From Octopus vulgaris (Eukaryota): a DNA stretch of 64,000 nucleotides. How positions within the stretch are numbered: the stretch's first letter is position 1; the number at the start of each line of letters is the position of its first letter. The translations under genes were made by a program, and so were the position numbers. This document shows, piece by piece, positions 23,771 through 63,260 of the stretch. A model generated the notes under the pieces. The model searched no databases, was not told the DNA's origin, and was given only the letters and a program-made list of their open reading frames with translations. The stretch is from positions 31,930,001 through 31,994,000 of the forward strand of contig OX597842.1 of the NCBI GenBank assembly GCA_951406725.2, read 5' to 3'.

Positions 23771-23857
23771 AAAAGAAAAAGAAATAAAAAGAGGTTAAAA
23801 AAAGAAAAGAAGAAAAAAAAGAAATAAAAGGAGGTTAAAAAAAAAAAAAGGCCTCAC

Positions 23858-24057
23858 TTTTCTCCGGTGGCGGCAAACATCGGGGGCCGTGATGGTAAAC
23901 TGGAGATTTGGGAAGAGAGTTTGCTTTTGGCTGCAGTCTGTTGTTGCACGCGCACTTCTGCTGCATCTGCAAGGTGCATGAGCGTTTTCCGTTCCATGCT
24001 CTCCTCAAAATTCTTACAACCAACACACTTGCAGATGCTTGAGCACATGATCTTTGC
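23858..24057 (-). CDS. LIN54: LIN54 exon, end of CXC2 ([20 protein letters not shown]...[17 protein letters not shown])
   Basis: ttttccag acceptor, AA|gtgagg donor; closely matches the LIN54 sequence I recall from vertebrates. Confidence 0.95.
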
Positions 24058-25430
24058 CTGGAAAATACACACACACACATATATATAAATATTTCCTTCT
24101 TGTGACACTTGTGAAGACCTGTTGAGGCAAGTGAAAATCAAAACAAATCAAAATAGATGAACATCAATGGAATTTGTATCTTTGTGGTACCAGTGCCGGT
24201 GGCACGTGGCACACAAGAAAACCATCCGAACGTGGCCGTAGCCAGTACCGCATCGACTGGCCTCCGTGCTGTGGGCACGTAACAAACACCATCCAAGCGT
24301 GGCCGTCTGCAAGCCTCATCTGGCACCTGTGTCGGTGGCACATAAAAACACCATCCGAGCGTGGACGTCTGCAAGCCTCATCTGGCACCTGTGTCGGTGT
24401 CACATAAAAAACACCATCCGAGCGTGGCCGTTTGCCAGCCTCGTCTGGCACCTGTGTCAGTGGCACATAAGATCACCCACTACACTCTCAGAGTGGTTGG
24501 CGTTAGGAAGGGCATCCAGCTGTAGAAACACTGCCAGATCTGACTGGACTGGTGCAGCTTTCGGGCTCCCCAGACCCCAGTTGAACCGTCCAACCCATGC
24601 TAGCATGGAAAGCGGACGTTAAATGATGATGATGATGATGATGATATCTATATAAATAAAATTGAAATTCTGTCCGTCTGGGACTCCTGTATATCAGCCT
24701 ACATTTGCCCTACATAGACATAATATACCGTTCTTATTTCTTTGTTGCCCACAGGGGGCTAAACACAGAGGGGACAAACAAGGACAGACAAAGGGATTAA
24801 GTCGATAACATCGACCCCAAGTGCGTAACTGGTACTTAATTTATTGAACCTAAAAGAATGAAAGGCAAAGTCGACCTCGGTGGAATTTGAACTCAGAATG
24901 TAAGGACAGACAAAATACCGCAAAGCATTTCACCTGGTGTGCTAATGTTTATCATTTCTTTGTTGCCAACAAGGGGCTAAACATAGAGGGAACAAACAAG
25001 GACAGACAAAAGGATTGACCCCAGTGCGTAACTGGTACTTATTTAATCGACCCCGAAAGGGTGACGGGCAAAGTCAACCTCGACGGAATTTGAACTCAGA
25101 ACGTAGCAGCAGATGAAATACCGCTAAGCATATTGCCCAGCGTGTTAACGTTTCTTTTTTTTTTTCATTTACCACATGGGGCTAAACATAGAGGGGACAA
25201 ACAAGGACAGACAAAAGGATTAAATCGATTATATTGACCCCAGTGCATAACTGGTACTTGAAATTTTCCCAGAATCCTTTTTAGCGCCAACTGAAGAATA
25301 TCATAGGAAAAAGCAGTCATGGAGCACAGGTTGACAACAGATTTGTGGGAGACACCCAAATTCTTTGACCGATTCTGTGTCTGTGACAAGCCTTGTTTTG
25401 GATCACAACTGACTTCAACAACAGCAGCAG

Positions 25431-26160
25431 TGGAGGTGCAATGGCCCAGTGACTAGGGCAGCGGACTCACGGTTGGAGGATCGCAGTTTCAATTCCCAAA
25501 CCAGGCGTTGTGTGTGCTTATTGAGCGAAAACACCTAAAGCTCCACGAGGCTCCGGCATGGGTTGGTGGCGACCCCTGCTGTACTCTTTCGCCCCAACTT
25601 TCTCTCACTCTTTCTTCCTGTTTCTTGTCCCCGACTTCTTACGCAACCGCTGAGCCTGGATGTGCATCCATCCATCCGTCGATGCTCTCAGTGTCGGGGG
25701 TTGACCTGCTTTCTCTTCTGCAAATCTTACAAATAGCAAAGGACCACATTTCGGATTTCTCCCACAAAGGGACAAAGACCGCTTCGCTCAACAATAACAG
25801 CAGGAGGCACAATGGCCCAGTGGTTAGGGCAGCGGACTCGTGGTCGGAGGATCGCGGTTTCGATTCCCAGACCGGGCATTGTGTGTGTTTATTGAGCGAA
25901 AACACCTAAAGCTCCACGAGGCTCCGGCAGGGGGTGGTGGCGACCCCTGCTGTACTCTTTCGCCCCAACTTTCTCTCACTCTTTCTTCCTGTTTCTTGTC
26001 CCCGACTTCCTACGCAACCGCTGAGCCTGGATGCGCATTTATCCATCCGTTGATGCTCTCGGTGTCGGGGGTTGACCTGCTTTCTCTTCTGCGGGTCTTA
26101 CGAATAGCAAAGGACCACGTTTCGGACTTCTCCCACAAAGGGACGAAGACCGCTTCGCTC
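25431..26160 (+). mobile_element. Two tandem SINE family C copies, tail type 2
   Basis: Same head and core as the 50961 copy but a different 3' half ending GACCGCTTCGCTC(AAC)n. Confidence 0.8.
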
Positions 26161-26204
26161 AACAAACAAACAAACAAGCAGCAACAACAAGAACAACAAC
26201 TCAC

Positions 26205-26299
26205 CTCGTAGCATTCGCAATAATTCTTCAGACAGCCGGACCGTTTGCAATTGCAGCCCTTGTTGTGGCGCCGATCGCCATCACCGTCTTTGCCTTTAC
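26205..26299 (-). CDS. LIN54: LIN54 exon, start of CXC2 ([32 protein letters not shown])
   Basis: ctacag acceptor, GAG|gtgagt donor, 95 nt, phase 1/0. Confidence 0.95.
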
Positions 26300-26994: not shown

Positions 26995-27125
26995 TATATT
27001 ATACATATATACGACAGGCTTCTTTCAGTTTCCGGGAACAACGGGAATAAATAAGAACTACACCTGACAGGGCCCAAACATTCTACCTGTTTTATATTCA
27101 AACATGACAACATACGCACCTTTAC

Positions 27126-27271
27126 CAATCTTTGGGTGGAAAGCCAGAGGGTTGCGATCGAGGCAGGCCTTGATGGCGCGGGACCTCTCCTCTTCGTGTT
27201 CCAGGTTGTTAGCACAGTTCGTACAGTTGCAGTTGTGACAGAACTCACCATTTGCAAAGCAATCACAATAC
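27126..27271 (-). CDS. LIN54: LIN54 exon, CXC1 end and hinge ([11 protein letters not shown]...[11 protein letters not shown])
   Basis: ttgcag acceptor; YCDCF and the RNPxAFxPK hinge are diagnostic of LIN54/tesmin. Confidence 0.95.
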
Positions 27272-27292
27272 CTGCAAATGAAAAGCAAAGCT

Positions 27293-27745
27293 TCATCATC
27301 ATCAGCATAATCATAATCGTCGTCGTCATCATCGTCATCATCATTGTCAGCGTCATCATCATCATCTTCATGATCGTCATCGTCATTGTCAGCGTCATCA
27401 TCATCATCATCGTCGTCATCATCGTCATCATCATCATTGTCAGCGTCATCATCATCATCTTCATGATCGTCATCGTCATTGTCAGCGTCATCATCATAAT
27501 CATCATCATAATCGTCATCATCATCATCATCATAATTGTCGTTGTCGTCATCATCATAATCGTCATCATCATCTTCATGATCGTCATCGTCATCATCATC
27601 ATCATAATTGTCGTCATCGTCATCATCATCATCATAATTGTCGTCGTCGTCATCATTATCATCATCATAATCATCATTGTCAGCATCAGCATCATCATCG
27701 TCGTCATCATCATAATCATCATCACTACCATTACATCATCATCAT
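27293..27745. repeat. Imperfect (ATC/GTC)n trinucleotide tract
   Basis: Visible directly; intronic. Confidence 0.9.
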
Positions 27746-27984
27746 CCCCAGTGTGCAACTGGTACAGTTTTTAATCGACCCTGAAGCGATGAAAGGCAAA
27801 GTCGACCTTGGCGGAATTTGAACTCAGAACGTAACGGCAGACGAAATACGGCTACGCATTTCGCCCGGCGTGCCAACGGTTCTGCCGGCTTGCCGCCTTC
27901 TTCTAGAACTCAGTTTTGCCGACACGGATAAACAACAATGGCAAAAACCTAAGAAAAAAAAATCATAAAAGAAAATTTACTTAC

Positions 27985-28056
27985 AGCTTTAAACACTGAG
28001 ATTTTGTACAATTACAAGGTTTCCTAGGTCTTGCCCCGGTGGCTTCAATGTTCGTC
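27985..28056 (-). CDS. LIN54: LIN54 exon, start of CXC1 (TNIEATGARPRKPCNCTKSQCLKL)
   Basis: tttacag acceptor, CT|gtaagt donor. RPRKPCNCTKSxCLKL is the tesmin/TSO1 CXC signature. Not in the supplied ORF track. Confidence 0.95.
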
Positions 28057-28165
28057 CTGTAAATGGTAAATAGAGGAAAAATTTTAAAAGCTTATGGAAT
28101 AATCAGAATTAGCAAATTCTTGCAGAGAATAGAGCCAAAAGTTAGCCAGCAGGATGAAGGGAAGA

Positions 28166-39364: not shown

Positions 39365-40809
39365 CTGCTTGATAATGAGCTTCGAAGGGGACTTCACCGT
39401 GCCCCCAATGGCAGTCGCCGAGTTGTTGGTCATTGTGAAAACGGACCTATCACTGCCCGCGACAGTCCTCGTTACCATGGTAACAATCGATGAGGCAGCA
39501 GATGAGGAAGGGGACTTGGACATGGAAACGGGGATCATGGTGATTTTCGTCGGGGTCTTCGCGGGGGACAGTGGCACTTTGCTGATCTGCAGCGCTGTTG
39601 ATTTCGTAGGGGTTCCAGCACCGGCGGGCGTCATTGCCGTGACAACGGTCTGCGTGGGGCCGCCCGTCGTCAGCGACGGCATGATTGTTTGTTGCGGGGT
39701 TATGGTGATGGTCTTGGGCGTCGATGGGGTCTGCGAGCCGTGTTCTTGGCCGGCGACGGCCGTCAGCCCCGGGACGAGGGACGTGAGCGTCATCATTTGT
39801 CCCTGGACCTGCAACGGTATCGCTTGTTGCTGGAGGTGGTGGTCAAGCGAGGAAGAAGAAGAGGAATTCTTCGTGGCAACAGTGGCACTGCCCGATGGTG
39901 TGGTGATGATGAACTTCGCAAGTACAGGTGACATGTTTGAAGTACCGATCAACGAGCGTTTGGTGGTCGCAGCCGCCGTAGAAGAAGGGGTCGCAGCAGT
40001 GAGCAGGGTCTTGTTAGCATGGGGCATACCAACAGCCACATCTGAAGGCCCCACTGCGACAACATATGTCGCAGTGGGCGTCACAGCAGCCTTCGACATC
40101 GGCCTGTTGCTACTACTGCTACTACTAATAACAAGGTTACCCAGGTCAGCGGACACTGTTGGCACGGCAGCGGAACTGGCAGCGGAATTTGCAGCGGAAC
40201 TTACAGTGGTACTGGCAGCACCCACTACCGACGGCAACGTGATGCAGTCAAACGCCGCACTTGGTTTAGCAGCCGGCACCACAGTAAGGCCACTGTCGTT
40301 GCAGCCTGTGTCCGGCAGAGCAATGAACGTGCCAGAGAGGGGCAGCGAATGGCGCTGCTGTTTGCTGTCCACGACAATCACGCTGCCGGCGCCGGCCTCT
40401 TGGAAAGCCGGTTGCTGCTGCGGCTGAGGCTGCAGCTGCGTGAGGTCCGAAGCGATGTTTGAGGGCCCGGCGTTGGATATGGTGGGGGTGGCGGCAGCGT
40501 TCGGGGTCGGCGCGGCGTTGATGAGGGTGGCGGCGGCGATGGTGGTGGGGGTCGCCGCGGCGGCGACGACGCCGGCATCTTCGAGGGAGTTGAGCTGGCC
40601 GCCGGACAGCGACGCGCCCGCCGACGACAGCGAGGCCGACGACAACGAGGAGTGGAGCGTGCCGCCCACCACGTTGAACGAGGACGTCGACGATGACGAG
40701 GAGGACGATGAGGAGGAGGAGGATGCGGAGGAGGAGGAGGAAGCCAGGCCCACCGTGTCGGAGTCGGACGGAGTCTGGGCAATGCCCACGACGACATCTT
40801 TGTCTGGGC
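39365..40809 (-). CDS. LIN54: LIN54 large exon, Ser/Ala/Thr-rich low-complexity N-terminus
   Basis: tttctatttcag acceptor and CAG|gtaaat donor; 1445 nt open; GC-rich coding-like composition; several S/T-P-x-K motifs. Confidence 0.85.
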
Positions 40810-43354: not shown

Positions 43355-45200
43355 CGAGTCTGTGTAATTATACCAGCATAATTAATCCTCCCTAGCTCCC
43401 ACCGGAAGTTAGTTACGCAAGGAACCGTTTATGACCGAACACCAAATGTGATACGTTAGTGGAGGTGTGTCGTGTGCATAAAAATGTTGGCGCGGAAAAT
43501 TAAGGGGTACTCATGGAGTATAACGTTCCTCAAAATATACGCAGAAAAGGAGTATTGAAAGCATTCAAATATCAATAATGTAGTTTTTTTAGTTCGAGAT
43601 CATTACTGGGTACCCGAGGAGAATAACATTCCTTAAAAGTAACGCAGAGATTTGGCTGTTGTTTCCAGCATATCCCTTGACCACCTTCCTCGTTTCTTTC
43701 TTAAGTATTGATGTGTTTCAATATTCTGCGAGCTGGCAGAACCGTTAGCACGCCGGGCGAAATGCTCAGAGGTATTTCGTCTGTCTTTACGGTCTGAGTT
43801 CAAATTCCGCCGAGGTCGACTTTGCCTTTCATCCTTTCGGGGTCGATAAATTAAGTATCAGTTACGAACAGGGGTCGATATAACCGACTTAATCCGTTTG
43901 TCTGTCCTTGTTTGTCCCCTCTGTGTTTAGCCCCTTGTGGGTAATAAAGAAATAGGTATTTCGTCTGCCATTCCATTTTGAGTTCAAATTCCGCCGAGGT
44001 CGACTTCACCTTTCATCCTTTCGGGGTCGATTAAATAAGTACCAGTTACGAACTGGGGTCGATATAACCGACTTAATCCGTTTGTCTGTCCTTGTTTATC
44101 CCCTCTGTGTTTAGCCCCTTGTGGGTAATAAAGAAATAGGTATTTCGTCTGTCTTTACGGTCTGAGTTCAAATTCCGTCGAAGACGACTTTGCCTTTCAT
44201 CCTTTCGGGGTCGATAAATTAAGTACCAGTTGCGCACAAGAGTCGATGTAATCGACTTAATCCCCTTTTCCGTCCTTGTTTGTCCCCTCTATGTTTAGCC
44301 CCTTGTGGGTAATAAAGAAATAGGTATTTCCTCTGACACACATCACAATTTTTTTTCGAAATATCTAAGGTTTATTTTGTAGATATATATGTATTTCTTT
44401 ACTACCCACAAGGGGCTAAACATAGAGGGGACAAACAAAGGGATTAAGTCAATTACATCGACCCAGTGCGAAACTGGTACTTTATTTATCGACCCCGAGA
44501 GGATGAAAGGCAAAGTCGACCTCGGCGGAATTTGAACTCAGAACGTAGCGACAGACGAAATATCGCTAAGCATTTCGCCCGGCGCGCTAACGTTTCTGCC
44601 AGCTCACCGCCTTAAATATATATGTAGATATATATGTGATGTATAAGGGTGATTGCCCAAATACGAATTTAACAGTAAAGAATACCACCTGAAAGGTATT
44701 TGTAGAAAATTTCATTTAAAAATATCAATATTTCTGAAAGTTATGAGGAAACAAAAGCTACGGGTGTGAATTTCCCGAAATTCCTCTCTCTACCCACGGA
44801 AAGAAATACTCGCAACAAATTGTTATATAAACGTGATCCACAGCATATGAAGCATGTTGACTCTTTTACTTGTTTCGGTCATTTTGACTGCGGCCATGCT
44901 GGAGCACTGCCTTTTAGTCGAGCAAATCGACCCCCCCCCCAGGACTTATTCTTTGCAAGCCCAGTACTTATTCTATCGGTCTCTTTTTGCCGAACCGCTA
45001 TGTCACGAGGACGTAAACACACCAGCATCGGCTGTCAAGCGATGTTGGAGGGGACAAACACAGACACACAAACTAGTTGGCTGGACTTCACAACCTCATA
45101 TGTTCTTAAAATTTAAATCTACATTTTTATCTGTATATCTACCTTCTCTAAAATGTTACTACTTGATTTGAAAGCTTTTGTATTATTGGAAAACCTATAT

Positions 45201-53566: not shown

Positions 53567-55910
53567 AGTTTGTTTACTCTTTTACTTGTATCAGTCATTT
53601 GACTGCGGCCATGCTGGAGCACCGCCTTCAGTCGAGTAACTCGACCCCGGGACTTATTCTTTGTAAGCCCAGTACTTATTCTATTGGTCCCTTTTGCCGA
53701 ACCGCTTAGTGACGGGAACGTAAACACACCAGCATCGGTTGTCAAGCAATGCTAGGGGGACAAACAGACACACACATACATATATATATATACATATATA
53801 CGACAGGCTTCTTTCAGTTTCCGTCTACCAAATCCACTCACAAGGCATTGGTCGGCCCGGGGCTATAGCAGAAGACACTTGCCCAAGATGACACGCAGTG
53901 GGACTGAACCCGGAACCATGTGGTTGGTAAACAAGCTACTTATTCTATCGGTCTCCTTTGCTGAACCGCTAAGTGACGGGGACGTAAACACACCAGCATC
54001 GGTTGTCAAGCAATGCTAGGGGGACAAACACAGACACACACATATATACATATATACGACAGGCTTCTTTCAGTTTCCGTCTACCAAATCCACTCACAAG
54101 GCATTGGTCGGCCCGGGGCTATAGCAGAAGACACTTGCCCAAGATGACACGCAGTGGGACTGAACCCGGAACCATGTGGTTGGTAAGCAAGCTACTTACC
54201 ACACAGCCACTCCTGCGCAAAAAATAATTTATTTACTTAGTTTAAAAAATTATTTAGGATCGACTACTTACGACTAGCTAGCACGGATGCGCGCACCGGG
54301 ACCACTGATCGCTAGTAGTACAAGATATTTGACCAAGGTACCATGCAGTGGGATTGAATCCGGAATTGTGTGGTTGGTAAGCAAACTTCTTAACCACACA
54401 GCTAAATCCTGTGTGTGTGTGTTAGAGAGAGAGAGAGGGGGGTGGAGGATGTACAGGATCACCAATAACAAGAGGTATTGGTGGTCCTAGAAATAGCAGC
54501 CTAGTCTCCCTAAAAATCACATCCAGCCATGTTAAAACGACGGGGTGGCCACGGCTGGAATGCTTTTGATTGTAAAGGTCTGCTGGAGACAGAAATAACG
54601 AAAGGAGAGAGGATCACTGAACGACAACAACTGCAAGCGAACGAGGAAGCCTGTTTCTGTTAGAAATAGCAGCCAAATTTCCCTTAAAATTCAAACCTCT
54701 ACAGGTCTTGCGGTGGGGGGGGGGAGCAGAAATGGTGGTGGATATGGGGGGGCTAAACAATAACAACACAAACAACAACAACTGCAAGCCAACGAGGGAG
54801 CCTGTCTCTGCTAGAAATAGCAGCCAAATTTTTCTTAAATTCAAATCCAAACCTTCAGTGCGTTAAATAGGGACACATTGGGGAGCTAAAGCATCGTCCA
54901 ATGCTAAAAATAGAAGTCAAATTCATTTCCTTCCCTTTGATTATCCCCACTTCCTTTTAAAAGACGATGCAAAGATCATATTAGGAACGGATATGATCAC
55001 CGTGTTTCCTCTATCTGGCTTGACTTGGGGTTAAGTAACTAACATTAATGCACCTATACAACCGCTCTGCGCTGGAAATAACAGCTGAGTTCCCTCCAAA
55101 TGAAGCACCACTCACTTAGATGTTGCTTTCCCACCGAAAGAACAACATTTACGCTTCTACGTTGCTAGAAATAGCAGCTAAGTCTCGAGTCAGTCAGCTG
55201 TACTGATGTATTTTAATAATAAACGTTTTAAATAGGAAGTTAAAGTCATATGGAAGTGTTTGGTGAGTGAATGTAGGGCAGGATGGGATGGGATGGGATG
55301 GTCGTGTTTGGAACGTCGATCGTTGAACGCGGTTTATTGTGAAAAATAAAACAAGGTTTCGGATAATAACAGAGGGAGGGAGGGGGGATAGAGGGAGGGT
55401 GTAGAGAGAATAGAGAGAGGGGGAAGGGAAAGAGAGAGAGATGAGACATGGAAAGAGAAAGACATTCAAAGGACGGAGAAAGGGGGGGAAAAGAAAGACT
55501 AAGAAATAGAGAGCGAGAGAGACAGGGAGAAAGAGAAATATAGATATATATGTAAGGAGAGAGAGAGTAAGAGAAGAAACAGGAAGAAGAGTAGAAGGGA
55601 GAGATGAAGGCAGTGGAGAGAAGGAAAGAGAGACAAAGAGAAAGAAATAGGAAGAGAGGGAGGGTAAGAGATAGTGAGAGACAGAAAGACAACAGAGAGA
55701 GAGTACACAGAAAAATAGAAAGAAAGTAAAGAGACAGAGAGAGAGAGAGACGCTCCTGTTCACGCGCTGTCACCCGCCACTAAGCCGCCGACTTGGGTCT
55801 GTCCAGAGAATATTAGGGTTATAGTGTTGTTGTAGAAGTAGGGAAAGCTTAAAGGAGTCCGAGGCCCCAGGAAAGGGGCCAGAAAAACCCAAGCAAAACC
55901 ATCAACTAAC

Positions 55911-55929
55911 CTGTATTCTCAGCAGGCAT
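55911..55929 (-). CDS. LIN54: LIN54 candidate first coding exon (MPAENT-G, phase 1)
   Basis: ATG CCT GCT GAG AAT ACA G followed by donor GTTAGT. Phase 1 matches the acceptor at 40809. Lies in a unique, CpG-containing stretch with CDE/CHR and ETS motifs. Confidence 0.6.
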
Positions 55930-55944
55930 TCTGGATATTTTCCG

Positions 55945-55960
55945 TTCAAAATCACGCGCC
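55945..55960 (-). promoter_or_regulatory. CDE/CHR tandem element (GGCGCG-TGAT-TTTGAA)
   Basis: Minus strand reads GGCGCG, 4-nt spacer, TTTGAA: the canonical CDE/CHR spacing, 15 nt upstream of the candidate ATG. ETS-like CGGAAGT at 56000-56006. Confidence 0.65.
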
Positions 55961-56104
55961 CACCATTAATGATATCCCATAATAGTGTGTATAACACCGA
56001 CTTCCGTTACTGAGAGAGAAAGTGGGAGGAGAGAAACATAGCGAGAGAGAGAGAGGGTGACGCGGAGAAAAAGGAGGGAGTAGGAGAAGGCAGAGAAAGA
56101 TATA

Positions 56105-56540
56105 TAGCTAGAGAGGGAGAGTGAAGAGAGCCGTAGAGAGGGGGGGAAAAGCTAGAGAGGGAGAGTGAAGAGAGCCGTAGAGAGGGGGGAAAAGCTAGTG
56201 AGGGAGAGTGAAGAGAGCCGTAGAGAGGGGGGGAAAAGCTAGAGAGGGAGAGTGAAGAGAGCCGTAGAGAGGGGGGAAGCTAGAGAGGGAGAGTGAAGAG
56301 AGCCGTAGAGAGGGGAAAAAGCTAGAGAGGGAGAGTGAAGAGAGCTGTAGAGAGGGAAAAAGCTAGTGAGGGAGAGTGAAGAGAGCCGTAGAGAGGGAAA
56401 AAGCTAGAGAGGGAGAGTGAAGAGAGCCGTAGAGAGGGAAAAAGCTAGAGAGGGAGAGTGAAGAGAGCCGTAGAGAGGGGGGGAAAAGCTAGTGAGGGAG
56501 AGTGAAGAGAGCCGTAGAGAGGGGGGAAAAAGCTAGAGAG
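56105..56540. repeat. ~38-bp GA-rich VNTR, about 11 copies
   Basis: Unit GCTAGAGAGGGAGAGTGAAGAGAGCCGTAGAGAG(G)n(A)n. Confidence 0.9.
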
Positions 56541-57734
56541 GAAGAGATAGAGTGAGATAAAGGCAAAGGGAGAGAGAAGAAGAAGGAATAGAGATAAAGG
56601 AAATTAGAGGGAGAGAAAGAGTAAGAAAAAGGGAAAGAGAGAAGAAGAAGGAAAAAGATATAAAGAAAATGAGAGGGAGAGAAAGAGCGAACGGAAAAGT
56701 GCGGAGCAGACGTTGCTTCCGTATATTTAACTACTCATACCACTACTCCATCGGTTTCGTTCTTTCATTTCACCTTACTGGCTTTATAATTTCTAATTAT
56801 AGTTTTTAAATTATAAATTATAATTAAAAATTATAATTATAGTTTTTAAATCACTTGATTCGTGTGTCTTGCACTTCGATTTCTTGCTTATCCCTTACCC
56901 CTCTCTCTCACTCACATTTAACTCCGAGCCTGCTCTGCTCCTATTTCCGCTTCGCTTAGTTACATCACTCTTACCGCCACTCTCTCAACTCCACTCGTTA
57001 AGCTTCACTCATACATACGTTGCAGAGTAGAGTAACGCTGAGGTCCCTTCGCTACATTCAACTACTCAGCCCCATTTATTCCCCTCTCAACTTAGTTTGC
57101 TTTACTTCTGCACTTTTAATAAATAATAATAATAATAAAACATTGTGTACGGTGCTCAGGTGCACTACAACTCATCTAAAGTGTGTGTATAGTACATAGG
57201 GTAATGTACAATCGTCAGGTAAAGAACAGTGCATGGGTCGTGACATATACACATATGTGTATGAGTATGGAAAGGGGACAATCAGGTCGGAAAGGATGAG
57301 GGGCCCCACTTGACTTAAGTGCGGGATCTTTTCGGTTTCACCGGTAGTTTTTCCTAGCGGTGTCGTATGAAATTGTCACCCAAAATTATGACCCTAGTAG
57401 GATCTTTTCAGTTTGCTAGAAAAATCTGAAAAATCTGGCCTTCAAACTGAAAAGATCCCCCTAGTATCGATCTATTGCATTTCAATCTGTTTTAGGGTTA
57501 GGGGTGGGGGAAGGGTATCTTTTTTTTCTTCACAAATGTAAACAAACCCAATCTGTTTCTTAAACGAGGGACATATTCATACAGCACATAATGTTTTTTT
57601 TACCTCAATAGACGTCATTGATTGGCTGAAATTGCAGAAATTGAAGAAAATAAAACAACAAATATCTTACAAACTATAGAATTTTCTCAATGAAGCCAAG
57701 AGAAAAAGATGTTTAATAAACACCTTCTAGGTAC

Positions 57735-58612
57735 TAGTCTCGTAGACTGGACCCGGATTGCGCTCACGCGGAGGCACGCGTGCGCGCACTAGCCAGACGT
57801 AGGTACTCGATACTCGATCCTACGACGTGGCATGCGCTGTGCGCGATTCTCGCATGCGCGTTTTAACATGCGCAATTTCACTACGGAATTTTTTTTTTTT
57901 TTAATTCGGATTTTGTTTCTTATAGCGGTTTAAAGGACACAAACTATTCAACATATATATATATGGTCGTTCAGTTAAAAGGAAAAAAATTTTTTTTTAA
58001 GATTCGTTACTTGGGTTTGTTTCGACCCGTTGCAATTTGAATTTTGGAAAAGTATAAATTTTGCATTATGTAGTTTGTTATTGTGTTCAAGTGAACATTT
58101 TTCTGGTTGAAATACACCGAAAAGTGGCGACACAGCAGTGAAAAAATGTTTTTAAAAAATGTTAAAAAATAGGGATTTTCATAGAAGTACGCTACCAAAA
58201 TTTAGCGACAGAAAATAAATTAAAAACCAATTCACCTTTTCTGTTGAGTTATGGCAATTCGACCATCGGTGTGTGTTTTGCAAATGTGTTCGAATGAGAA
58301 ACTGAATATATCGAAACAAACCCGAACAACGAAACTTTAAAAAAAAATTTTTTCGGGGGGTGGGGGCTAACCGAACGACCATATATGTTGTATATTTTGT
58401 GTCCTTTAAACCGCTATAAGAAACAAAATCCGAATTTTAAAAAAAAAAAATTTTATCAGTGAAATTGCGGGTGGGGGTGGGTGGGGGGTAAACGCGCATA
58501 CGCGAATCGGAAAAGCGCATGCGCAAGTCACGTCGTAGGATCGAGTATCGAGTATCGAGTACGTACGTCTGGCTAGCGCGTGTGCGCAAACCGGGTCCAG
58601 TCTACGAGACTA
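57735..58612. mobile_element. Non-autonomous DNA transposon with ~250-bp TIRs (Academ-like)
   Basis: TAGTCTCGTAGACTGGACCCGG...CCGGGTCCAGTCTACGAGACTA, flanked by GTAC on both sides. Confidence 0.75.
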
Positions 58613-58719
58613 GTACCCGCAATTCTACCAGTATACGAAGTTTGAAAGTGTTTAGTTACGTGGAAATTATTTTAAAAAACTGCCGGTCAAACGGAAAAGA
58701 TCCGAAAAAATAAAGAAAA

Positions 58720-59345: not shown

Positions 59346-62300
59346 TATTTCTTTATTCACCATAAGGTTGAGAAAAGAGGGGACAAAACAAACGTTGGGG
59401 TCAGGGTATCGAATGAGACGAAACATATGAATAAACAAACGAATTAAAATATATACAATTAAATGAGAATGAGTGATTAACAAAAAAATGAAGCGGAGGA
59501 CGCGGTTGACCCCACAAACCACATCCTCACACTGAAGACTTTGCTTTCTCCTTTTTCACATTCTCGATTAAACAGGTTCTTTCACTCGCAACATACTTGC
59601 TGTAGACTTCCATCTTTTACGAAACACACTTTGCGACAGGCATTTCTTCTCCAGCCTTATTTTCCGTTTCATGTGGAAAACGAAAAAGTCGATTAGCTCG
59701 AGACTGGAGATAAACATGCCTGTTGCAATTCCTTTTACTCTCGTCTTCCACACTACTTCTTTCGCCATAGCAACTACCGAGAGAAAACAGGCTCGCTCCT
59801 CCCTATTCAGGAAGGTCGGCGGAACTATCTTAATTACAGATTCGCTCGACAGTTGTACTCTTCTCGAATGCGACAGCAGGTGTTCGACATAAGTCCAGAG
59901 TTCAGTCACCTTGGGGCATTGCACAATCGCGTGCAGGACAGTTTCACTGTCCCTCTTACATCTTGCACAAACCGGCGAAGGTGCACACCCATGTCTAAAG
60001 AGCTTATCTCGAACCGGTAAAGCTCCTCTGTAACATTGCCAGGCCAGGGACTTTTGGTAATTATCCATAGGCCCCGGACCGAATGTTCTTTGGAACAGGC
60101 TGGCCAGTTGATTTTCGGCGAAGCCCAGAGTTTCTCCTAGGACGTCGTCACACTTAAACTCTACTAACCCTCTATAGAAGAACGCGGTAGTAGCCCCGCC
60201 ACCGGCGTTGCCCGACTGGGAGAGAAGCACGAGTGCCTGATAGCACTCTGCATGCCACATGCCCAACCTCGGTCTACACTTGATCCATGGGTTCAGTTCG
60301 TTAAACGATGTGAACTGTGGAAATAACAGCTTGACAAACGGAGACCACACCTGCTCACCGTCCAGGTAAATCCAGAGGTGCCTAAGCCTGAGCGCATGTC
60401 TGCGCATTTTTAGCCACGGCATCCCTAACCCACCGTTCAGCGGCTTTTGGCAGCAAATAGAGCGCCTTACAAGAGGTCTGCTGCCCCTCCACAAAAAGCG
60501 AAAGAGCATGCGTTCCAGTTTGTTCAGCCACGAATCGGGGCAAGGCACTACGGTTAGGCGGTAAGTGATTACAGAGGCGATAAACACTTCTGCAACCTCC
60601 GCCTTCCCTTTCAAGGACAGATTCCGTTCAGACCATGTCTGAGTTAGGAGAGCCACCTTTCTCGCCACCTCGCTCCAATTCTTCTCTATCTGGAGATCTG
60701 GACCTAACCAGATCCCAAGCATTTTCACCGGTCCTTCCGTCCAACGTCCTACGACGCTGTCGGAAGACATCGACTTGCCCCTCCAGGTGCCGAGTTGCAA
60801 GCCGACCGATTTATCCCGGTTGACTTTCGCTCCTGCCACCGCTTCGTAGTCCCTTAAGGCCTCACCCACCCACTGTAGGTGCTCGACTCGGGAAACGATG
60901 ACGGTGATGTCGTCCGCATACGCCGAAGCTGACTTTCCGCACCCTAGATCTTGCGGGGTGCCTCTCATAGTTTCCAACCTCCTCAGCAATGGCTCGAGGG
61001 CCAAAACGTAGAGAAGCGGGGAGAGAGGACACCCTTTACGTACCGAACGTTCAATGCTGAACGGTTCCGAAAGGAAACCATTTACCCGAACTACCTATTC
61101 GATGTTGCTGTATAAAGCGATGATCCATCCGCGGAAGGTCGGGCCGAAGCCAGCCGCCGCGAGGACCGCCGCCAGATACTGATGGTCCACCCTATCAAAC
61201 GCTTTCGATTGGTCCAAGTGGACCATAGCCCCACCCTTGCCAGGAATCCTATTTACCCTTTCTAAGGCATAGCGTAGAAAGTGGAGATTGTCGTGGATGG
61301 TCCTTCCAGGGATGGCGCAAGTTTGCACCTCGCCAACAAGTTCACCCACGACCCTCGCCAACCTTTTTGCTAAGACCTTGGCCAAGATCTTCAACTCTGC
61401 GTTAAGCAGAGTGATAGGCCGGAAATTATCAATTAAATCCCCCTTGTTTGGGTCCTTTCTTAACAGCGCTACCACTCCTCAGCTCACAGACTTAGGAATT
61501 CTCCCGTTCTGCTGCCAGTTGGTGTACACGCATGCAAGTAGGTGCCCAAACAAGTCTGGCATGCTACTATAGAGTTCGTAAGGCAGACCATCGAGTCCCG
61601 GCGATTTGTCCCCGCCGCATTCTGCCAACATATCCTTGACTTCTTTGGCTGTGATCGGCGCCTCACAAGATTCCGCGTCCGGCCCCGATAGACGCGGCGA
61701 ACCGGCTAGGAAGTCTGCGAGCTTCTCCCCGCGCTCCAGCTCGCCGCTCCTCCCGAATAGCTGGGCGAAATGATCATGAAACACCTTGCACATCTCCTCG
61801 GGTTCGTTTACTAATCGACCATTTGGGCCCGTCAAGGATCGAATGGTTGAGCTGTTGCCACGCTGGCCCTCTACCACCCGGGCCCATCCGGCTGCGTTGA
61901 TCCCTTCCTGTCTCATTGCACGGATTTTAGCCCTAATAATGCACCCTTCATGTTTAGCTTGGAGATGTTGGTCTAGTGCTAACCTCGCCGCTAACACTTT
62001 CGATGTACTGCCTGACCTCATTGCCTCCTCTATTGCCTTAACTAGTTCCTTTTCTACTTTGTTTCTAGCACTAGCTAGTTCTTTGCTAAACCTAATTGAC
62101 TCAAATTTGATGGCTCTTTTCAGGGCGTACCACCATTTATTGTTGATAATGGATCCGGTTAACGCCCTCATTACTAATTGTTTAATCCGATTCCTGTAGG
62201 CTTCACAGTCCAATAGTGACTTGTTTAGCTTCCAGTAACCGGTACCTCGTCTACACATGCTATCTATGTCGAGCGTACAGGTCACTAATTTGTGATCGCT

Positions 62301-63260
62301 GTAGCTGACGATATGGTGTTGTGGACAGCTAAGTATTTTCTTATCTTTCCTTCTAGTTATGATTCTATCGATATAAGATCTGGACGACCCGTCGTTTCTT
62401 GCCCAGGTCCACTCTGGAGTGTCTGGATGGTCCAGTCTGAATCTATCTGCCAATTCGAAACGACTTAGCATATCGTTGAGGTGAGGTAATCCCCTCGTAT
62501 TCTTTCTCGAGCCAACATAATCTACGCTTGCATCGCAAATTATGTTGAAGTCACCTAGCAATACTAACGTGTTCGACGTGCCAAGAAAATTCTCTAGGCT
62601 TTTGAAATACTCTTTCTGCCCGGCTTTTCCTGCGCAGGGAGCATAGACAGCGACCAGCCTGAACACTTTACCACTGCTGTGCGTCACATCCAAAACGACC
62701 AACCTGCCTTCCGGATCTATAAAGACAGTTCTAATCTCTAAATCCAGGTTTTTCCTGACCAGCACTGCCACTCCTCCTCCCCCTCCAGGTCGACAGGGAG
62801 AAATGTATTTCTCGTAGCCGTTTAGAAGGGCCGAAAAAGCCTGCAGCCCACTCAGTCTGGATTCGGTAATTACCACTACATCCAAACGATGCGACCTAAG
62901 GTCGTTAAGGAGGTAGCCTTGCTTCCAATACGACCCCAGGCCGCGAGTATTTATACAACCGAGTTTAAACGAGAATGTGAAAATTTAGTCGAATGTTTAA
63001 AACTTACTGTTTTAACGGAAGAGAGGATGTAGTTTCACCCTCATCTTTTCTGTCTGTGAGTGTTGTGTTTTGCGAGGTCAGTTTTTTTGCGAATTGCTTG
63101 TACAGATGGCTTGAAAAGTTCATCTGTAACGGGCCTACATCCTCCGCTAAAGATTTTTTAATTTCAAAATAATCCGCGTTATCTATCGTATAAAATTCTA
63201 CATTTTCGGATATAATACTATTTATATCTGTTGCGATATATTTTTTCGCCGATTTCAGAA
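59346..63260 (-). mobile_element. Tx1/L1-clade LINE, 5'-truncated within ORF1
   Basis: Open ORF1 tail ~63258-63004, then ORF2, then a 3' UTR ending AATAAAGAAATA. GA/TC minisatellite on both sides. Confidence 0.9.
59568..62970 (-). pseudogene. Tx1-type ORF2 (APE, RT, C-terminal Cys/His finger) with two in-frame stops
   Basis: The three listed ORFs share one frame, with stops at 61479-61481 and 61095-61097. Motifs: INTRGL, GDFN, SDH, WKLN, KSPGLDG, DQSKAFD, RKGCPLSP (usually RQG), YADD, CARC...H...C. Confidence 0.9.

Follow-up and report, generated by a model that had tools for sequence, protein, structure and literature searches.

A putative CDE/CHR element where transcription of an octopus LIN54 gene probably begins

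Introduction

A hybrid E2F/CHR motif has been described in worm, fly and human, together with occupancy of the lin-54 promoter by LIN-54 and of the genes of its own subunits by DREAM; upon depletion of LIN-54, expression of the subunit genes changes little in fly and worm (PMC3093354). A second study is in agreement on the worm hybrid motif and on lin-54 self-binding (PMC5683655). For human LIN54 itself, conserved CHRs are given at -95 and +99 (PMC4176359, Table S3), and the gene is listed as a DREAM target (PMC5729532). In human promoters, CHRs are located at the start site or close to it, and 23% of CHR promoters also carry a CDE (PMC4176359). The CDE is written in IUPAC code as SGCGCS and the CHR consensus as TTYRAA (PMC4974476).

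In the literature searched, which left most subscription papers outside, we found no report of a molluscan CDE/CHR or DREAM promoter. Here we describe a candidate CDE/CHR element at the first exon of LIN54 in Octopus vulgaris and compare it with these systems. The window analysed is the whole stretch of 64,000 nucleotides (assembly GCA_951406725.2, contig OX597842.1, positions 31,930,001 to 31,994,000), and positions are counted from its first letter.

Results

Composite element and its surroundings

On the minus strand of the window, the hexamer GGCGCG (55960-55955), a 4-nt spacer (55954-55951) and TTTGAA (55950-55945) follow one another, and a further 15 nt lead to the ATG at 55929. The features at this end of the gene are as follows.

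56001..56006, minus strand: putative ETS-like word CGGAAG upstream of the start zone, from a motif scan
55966..55980, minus strand: tiny upstream ORF 1 of 4 codons, upstream of all six contig 5' ends, from sequence and contigs
55952..55966, minus strand: tiny upstream ORF 2 of 4 codons, overlapping the CDE, from sequence and contigs
55939..55975, minus strand: zone of RNA-contig 5' ends (55939, 55940, 55952, 55954, 55970 and 55975), likely transcription start region, a weak hint from contigs
55955..55960, minus strand: CDE-like hexamer GGCGCG, fitting SGCGCS, predicted E2F/DP contact
55945..55950, minus strand: canonical CHR TTTGAA, 4 nt downstream of the CDE and fitting TTYRAA, predicted LIN54 site
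55911..55929, minus strand: coding part of LIN54 exon 1, 19 nt with a phase-1 donor, from junction contigs and similar molluscan N-termini
39365..40809, minus strand: LIN54 exon 2, 481 codons of low complexity, from the open frame and acceptor

The motif scan also returned CGGAAA directly 3' of the CHR (55944-55939), and we take both words to be ETS-like. It gave no CCAAT box within ~1 kb upstream in the LIN54 promoter, and no TATA match was present at the element. By eye, a purine/pyrimidine-rich minisatellite occupies 56110-56540 immediately upstream, so that a unique core promoter of ~100 bp remains. A MITE-like element with long inverted ends (57730-58620) and a GC-richer segment resembling a LINE-type retroelement on the minus strand (59500-63000) were likewise recognized by eye.

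First exon and transcript 5' ends

The coding part of exon 1 runs from the ATG at 55929 to 55911, where a GT donor follows, and the exon 2 acceptor AG lies at 40811-40810; joined in phase 1, they continue into the 481-codon open frame of exon 2. We compared the stretch 55770-56030 with eight sequencing runs, one of which was DNA-like and one of unclear kind, while six were guessed to be RNA, none being recorded as such. In six of the seven non-DNA runs (6 studies, 2 organisms), a contig departs from the window at 55910 and its loose end is the start of exon 2, with one base fitting on either side of the junction. In contrast to these contigs, the DNA contig covers the entire stretch. Among 21 homologues hand-picked by eye for their N-termini, 20 share the pattern MP[AIT][QE]xx[GDA], 19 of these at residue 1; other starts occur in several gastropod LIN54 proteins and in the best-matching homologue.

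The original prediction, made from the letters alone, had read a CDE, four bases, a CHR and 15 nt before a start codon with a phase-compatible next exon, as well as two tiny upstream ORFs, the second overlapping the CDE. All of this is found at 55960-55929 and directly upstream, and the junction contigs and molluscan N-termini support both the start codon and the proposed 55911-40809 junction. All six contig 5' ends lie at most 15 nt from the edges of the element, none extends past 55975, and they are thus well within 200 bp of it; contig ends being only a weak hint on the exact start, they bracket the element and weakly suggest that transcription of LIN54 starts on or around it. The second organism's DNA matches at every one of the 261 bp, intron included, and therefore gives no signal of selective conservation.

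LIN54 protein and DREAM partners

When the CXC-region exon was used as query, LIN54 proteins were returned, and the named top matches were molluscan. The best-matching homologue maps LIN54 exons from 40069 to 22735, among them the following.

27118..28067, minus strand: CXC domain 1 exons, with the counterpart of human tyrosine Y536, from homologue mapping and alignment to human LIN54
23857..26297, minus strand: CXC domain 2 exons, with the counterpart of human tyrosine Y610, from homologue mapping and alignment to human LIN54

These exons align with the solved human LIN54 domain (PDB 5fd3), and both tyrosines that read DNA in the minor groove are kept, their numbering being deduced from PMC4974476. 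The tandem CXC domains with minor-groove tyrosines place the protein in the LIN54/tesmin family, and a splice within the first CXC domain leaves the motif intact. Exon 2 encodes 481 Ser/Ala/Thr-rich residues where the closest homologue has ~296 up to the corresponding position, so that the low-complexity N-terminus is expanded; a weak homologue search with exon 2 gave no match among longer proteins.

Elsewhere in the genome we found a gene with the LIN9 DIRP domain and genes with E2F/DP-family domains. A LIN52 family search of the genome gave no match anywhere and is thus uninformative. Two E2F/DP-domain exons with nearly equal scores stand ~57 kb apart on C20, possibly a tandem or an assembly duplicate. 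On C21, an E2F-domain exon belongs to a two-domain E2F7/8-like gene; a number of E2F-like sites and a single loose CDE-N4-CHR precede this exon by 3-6.6 kb.

Frequency of the motif

The window contains the composite a single time and none of 100 shuffles contains it, whereas TTYGAA by itself is at chance level in the window (79 versus 75 expected). The 251-bp region around the element is single-copy in the genome. Across the 2.8 Gb genome, strict GGCGCG-N4-TTTGAA has 48 matches, about 2e-6 per 100 bp by hand arithmetic, versus 40 for the reversed control. The strict motif is thus without genome-wide enrichment, and it is the location of the match, rather than the string, that gives it weight. 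By eye, 12 of 30 fetched strict matches form one dispersed repeat family, many copies of which carry the strict motif.

In a weak test of motif-to-gene association, a Pfam scan of 283 of 337 ORFs at 16 of 20 fetched loci, with four repeat-embedded loci dropped, no cell-cycle gene could be assigned to any of these 16 loci; the Pfam matches nearby comprised retroelements, IFT140 and, ~8 kb downstream of one motif match, a cyclophilin exon. On C3 (142.549-142.554 Mb, approximately), the strict motif is part of a promoter-like block duplicated in inverted orientation, and the cyclophilin-type exon lies downstream of one copy of this block on the same strand. At 44531-44546 of the window, and at many other loci, an abundant short repeat holds a GC-rich hexamer, four bases and TTTGAA; it is presumably the reverse complement of the Pol III B-box. 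As this repeat looks like a loose CDE/CHR site, it will raise the counts of motif scans. A metagenome scan yielded at least 119 matches. Among the matches listed, seven had a loose CDE and none a strict one, and none showed LIN54 similarity by tblastn, so no orthologous promoter was obtained.

CHR promoters at other G2/M genes

Cyclins, CKS, SMCs, kinesins and Ras-family genes were located by Pfam search and the DNA upstream of them was read; the individual cyclin, CKS, SMC and kinesin names were given by eye from known motifs and are to be taken as presumptive. For cyclin B, cyclin B3, CKS and KIF11, the promoter was tied to an ATG that had been located without reference to the motif. At cyclin B, a pair of CCAAT boxes spaced by 32 bp precedes TTCGAA, which lies 225 nt upstream of the ATG; KIF11 also has two CCAAT boxes, and its two CHRs stand 119 and 179 nt upstream of the ATG. 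A CCAAT box accompanies a reverse CHR 103 nt upstream of the ATG at cyclin B3, and a reverse CDE-N4-CHR 212 nt upstream at one CKS. SMC2 carries a reverse CHR 60 nt upstream of its ATG. In two further genes, the sites lie just upstream of likely donors: a CCAAT box flanked by two CDE-N4-CHR sites at KIF4, and a CCAAT pair with a CHR after it at CENP-E. Among the cyclin B, KIF11, KIF4, CENP-E, cyclin B3 and CKS promoters, there are three cases of CCAAT pairs 26-32 bp apart. This predicted arrangement, CCAAT beside CHR just upstream of the likely first exons of G2/M genes, is a vertebrate-like late-cell-cycle layout.

For the counts that follow, up to 5 kb upstream of 16 test and 51 control genes were used with repeats masked; the thresholds were set when part of the data was already known, and many control windows probably lack promoters. 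A CHR lay at most 60 bp from a CCAAT cluster in 11/20 test versus 3/31 control cases (Fisher p 8e-4). The Ras-family controls alone had a nearby CHR at three of ten CCAAT clusters. For mitotic kinesins the figure was 8/12, two of the eight being KIF22 matches in a repeat and two KIFC1 matches at only candidate promoters, versus 0/21 for other kinesins; six settings gave p values between 4e-5 and 3e-3, against p >= 0.06 for reversed or shuffled CHR words. A CDE at N4 was present at 4 of 129 test CHRs, of which one belongs to a repeat copy that had escaped masking, and at none of 220 unmasked control CHRs (p 0.018).

An apparent CDE/CHR upstream of SMC5 was rejected, as it lies within an inverted-repeat element. 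No promoter-assignable element was found in 20 kb upstream of each of KIF18, KIF20 and KIF23 or in 30 kb upstream of LIN9, genes whose first exons were not located. A Nuf2 family search of the genome gave no match, and a HORMA search a single internal exon. Together, there is good but not rigorous support for predicted CHR-based promoters in this genome, with the CDE optional as in humans.

Discussion

Our results suggest a real, well-placed and probably functional CDE/CHR where this molluscan LIN54 gene begins. We consider it likely that this element at the probable LIN54 start is bound by the octopus's own MuvB/DREAM, and that LIN54 is cell-cycle-regulated and self-buffering as in other bilaterians. 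Following the mammalian model, LIN54 would bind the CHR and E2F/DP the CDE; DREAM would repress LIN54 in quiescent cells, and Myb/FOXM1-MuvB would activate it later in the cycle. The feedback would probably be modest, buffering the level of the complex and not acting as a switch. The string itself is no marker, but of all genes it is LIN54 for which precedent predicts such a site, and the match is found at its start, which we count for function. The orthologue precedent in human, fly and worm likewise speaks for a self-site, while the small change of subunit genes upon LIN-54 depletion in fly and worm speaks against it.

Because the LIN54 promoter has ETS-like words and is without CCAAT, a reading driven by E2F or ETS has to be weighed, in which the GC box is a working site for E2F or another factor, the ETS-like sites drive the promoter and TTTGAA is incidental core-promoter sequence, with no self-regulation by LIN54. 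Two such words flank the element, the other G2/M promoters seen do have CCAAT, and TTYGAA is common, at about 2 per kb of control DNA. However, the spacer has the exact length of 4 nt, the CHR shows the canonical word, a CDE at that spacing accompanies no control CHR, and the human orthologue has conserved CHRs; we regard this reading as unlikely. That the element is a chance match or a repeat relic without function gains from the near-equal counts of strict motif and reversed control, from the many matches within repeats, from the look-alike carried by the abundant short repeat, and from the fact that scanning many windows will turn up such matches. At the genome-wide density of the strict motif, a chance match at this very position has a low probability, and a single-copy region coinciding with transcript 5' ends, in a gene whose orthologues are DREAM-bound, makes this reading quite unlikely here.

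The sequence might instead act mainly through its upstream ORFs, damping LIN54 translation. Both upstream ATGs are present, at 55980 and 55966, the second sharing one base with the stop codon of the first ORF, and two of the six contigs take in the second. However, the first is reached by no contig, four contigs begin downstream of both, and chance readily yields four-codon ORFs. The upstream ORFs look largely irrelevant; we dropped such control as the main explanation and judge it very improbable.

A wider claim, that a cephalopod has retained the vertebrate late-cell-cycle layout whole (a CCAAT pair ~32 bp apart, a CHR, sometimes a CDE, and a LIN54 self-site), we hold to be slightly favoured. 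If true, the layout would date to the bilaterian ancestor, and a molluscan cell-cycle regulon could be read from sequence. The octopus element itself would add molluscs as a third bilaterian branch to the grammar and self-feedback already described for humans, flies and worms, and would give cephalopod work on proliferation in brain growth and regeneration concrete promoter elements. A DREAM specialist would expect a self-site at LIN54, so the surprise is low; more can be gained from following the CCAAT-plus-CHR arrangement seen at cyclin B, KIF11, KIF4 and CENP-E.

Neither the grammar in invertebrates nor LIN54 self-feedback is new; the molluscan instance is, as far as the literature searched goes. 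The original prediction had called the grammar vertebrate-style and proposed that LIN54 feeds back on its own promoter. CHR-type promoters do appear at octopus G2/M genes, but the hybrid motif is not specific to vertebrates, and the feedback was already described; for both, PMC3093354 covers worm, fly and human.

Compared with known DREAM/MuvB CDE/CHR promoters, the octopus element has the same GC-rich CDE, 4-nt spacer and canonical TTTGAA near the start without a TATA match, and the LIN54 CXC tyrosines are conserved; it differs in its molluscan host and in lacking an upstream CCAAT, and here binding and cell-cycle timing are predicted. The human LIN54 promoter belongs to the same gene, has a CHR near the start and is a listed DREAM target, whereas its two conserved CHRs and E2F sites contrast with the single compact CDE/CHR 15 nt before the octopus ATG, and positional homology between the two would be conjectural. 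The C. elegans DRM motif for E2F/DP and LIN-54 is likewise an invertebrate hybrid CDE/CHR, and the worm complex occupies its own subunit genes; the worm case, in another protostome clade, was established by ChIP and one-hybrid, whereas the octopus case is drawn from sequence and transcript position.
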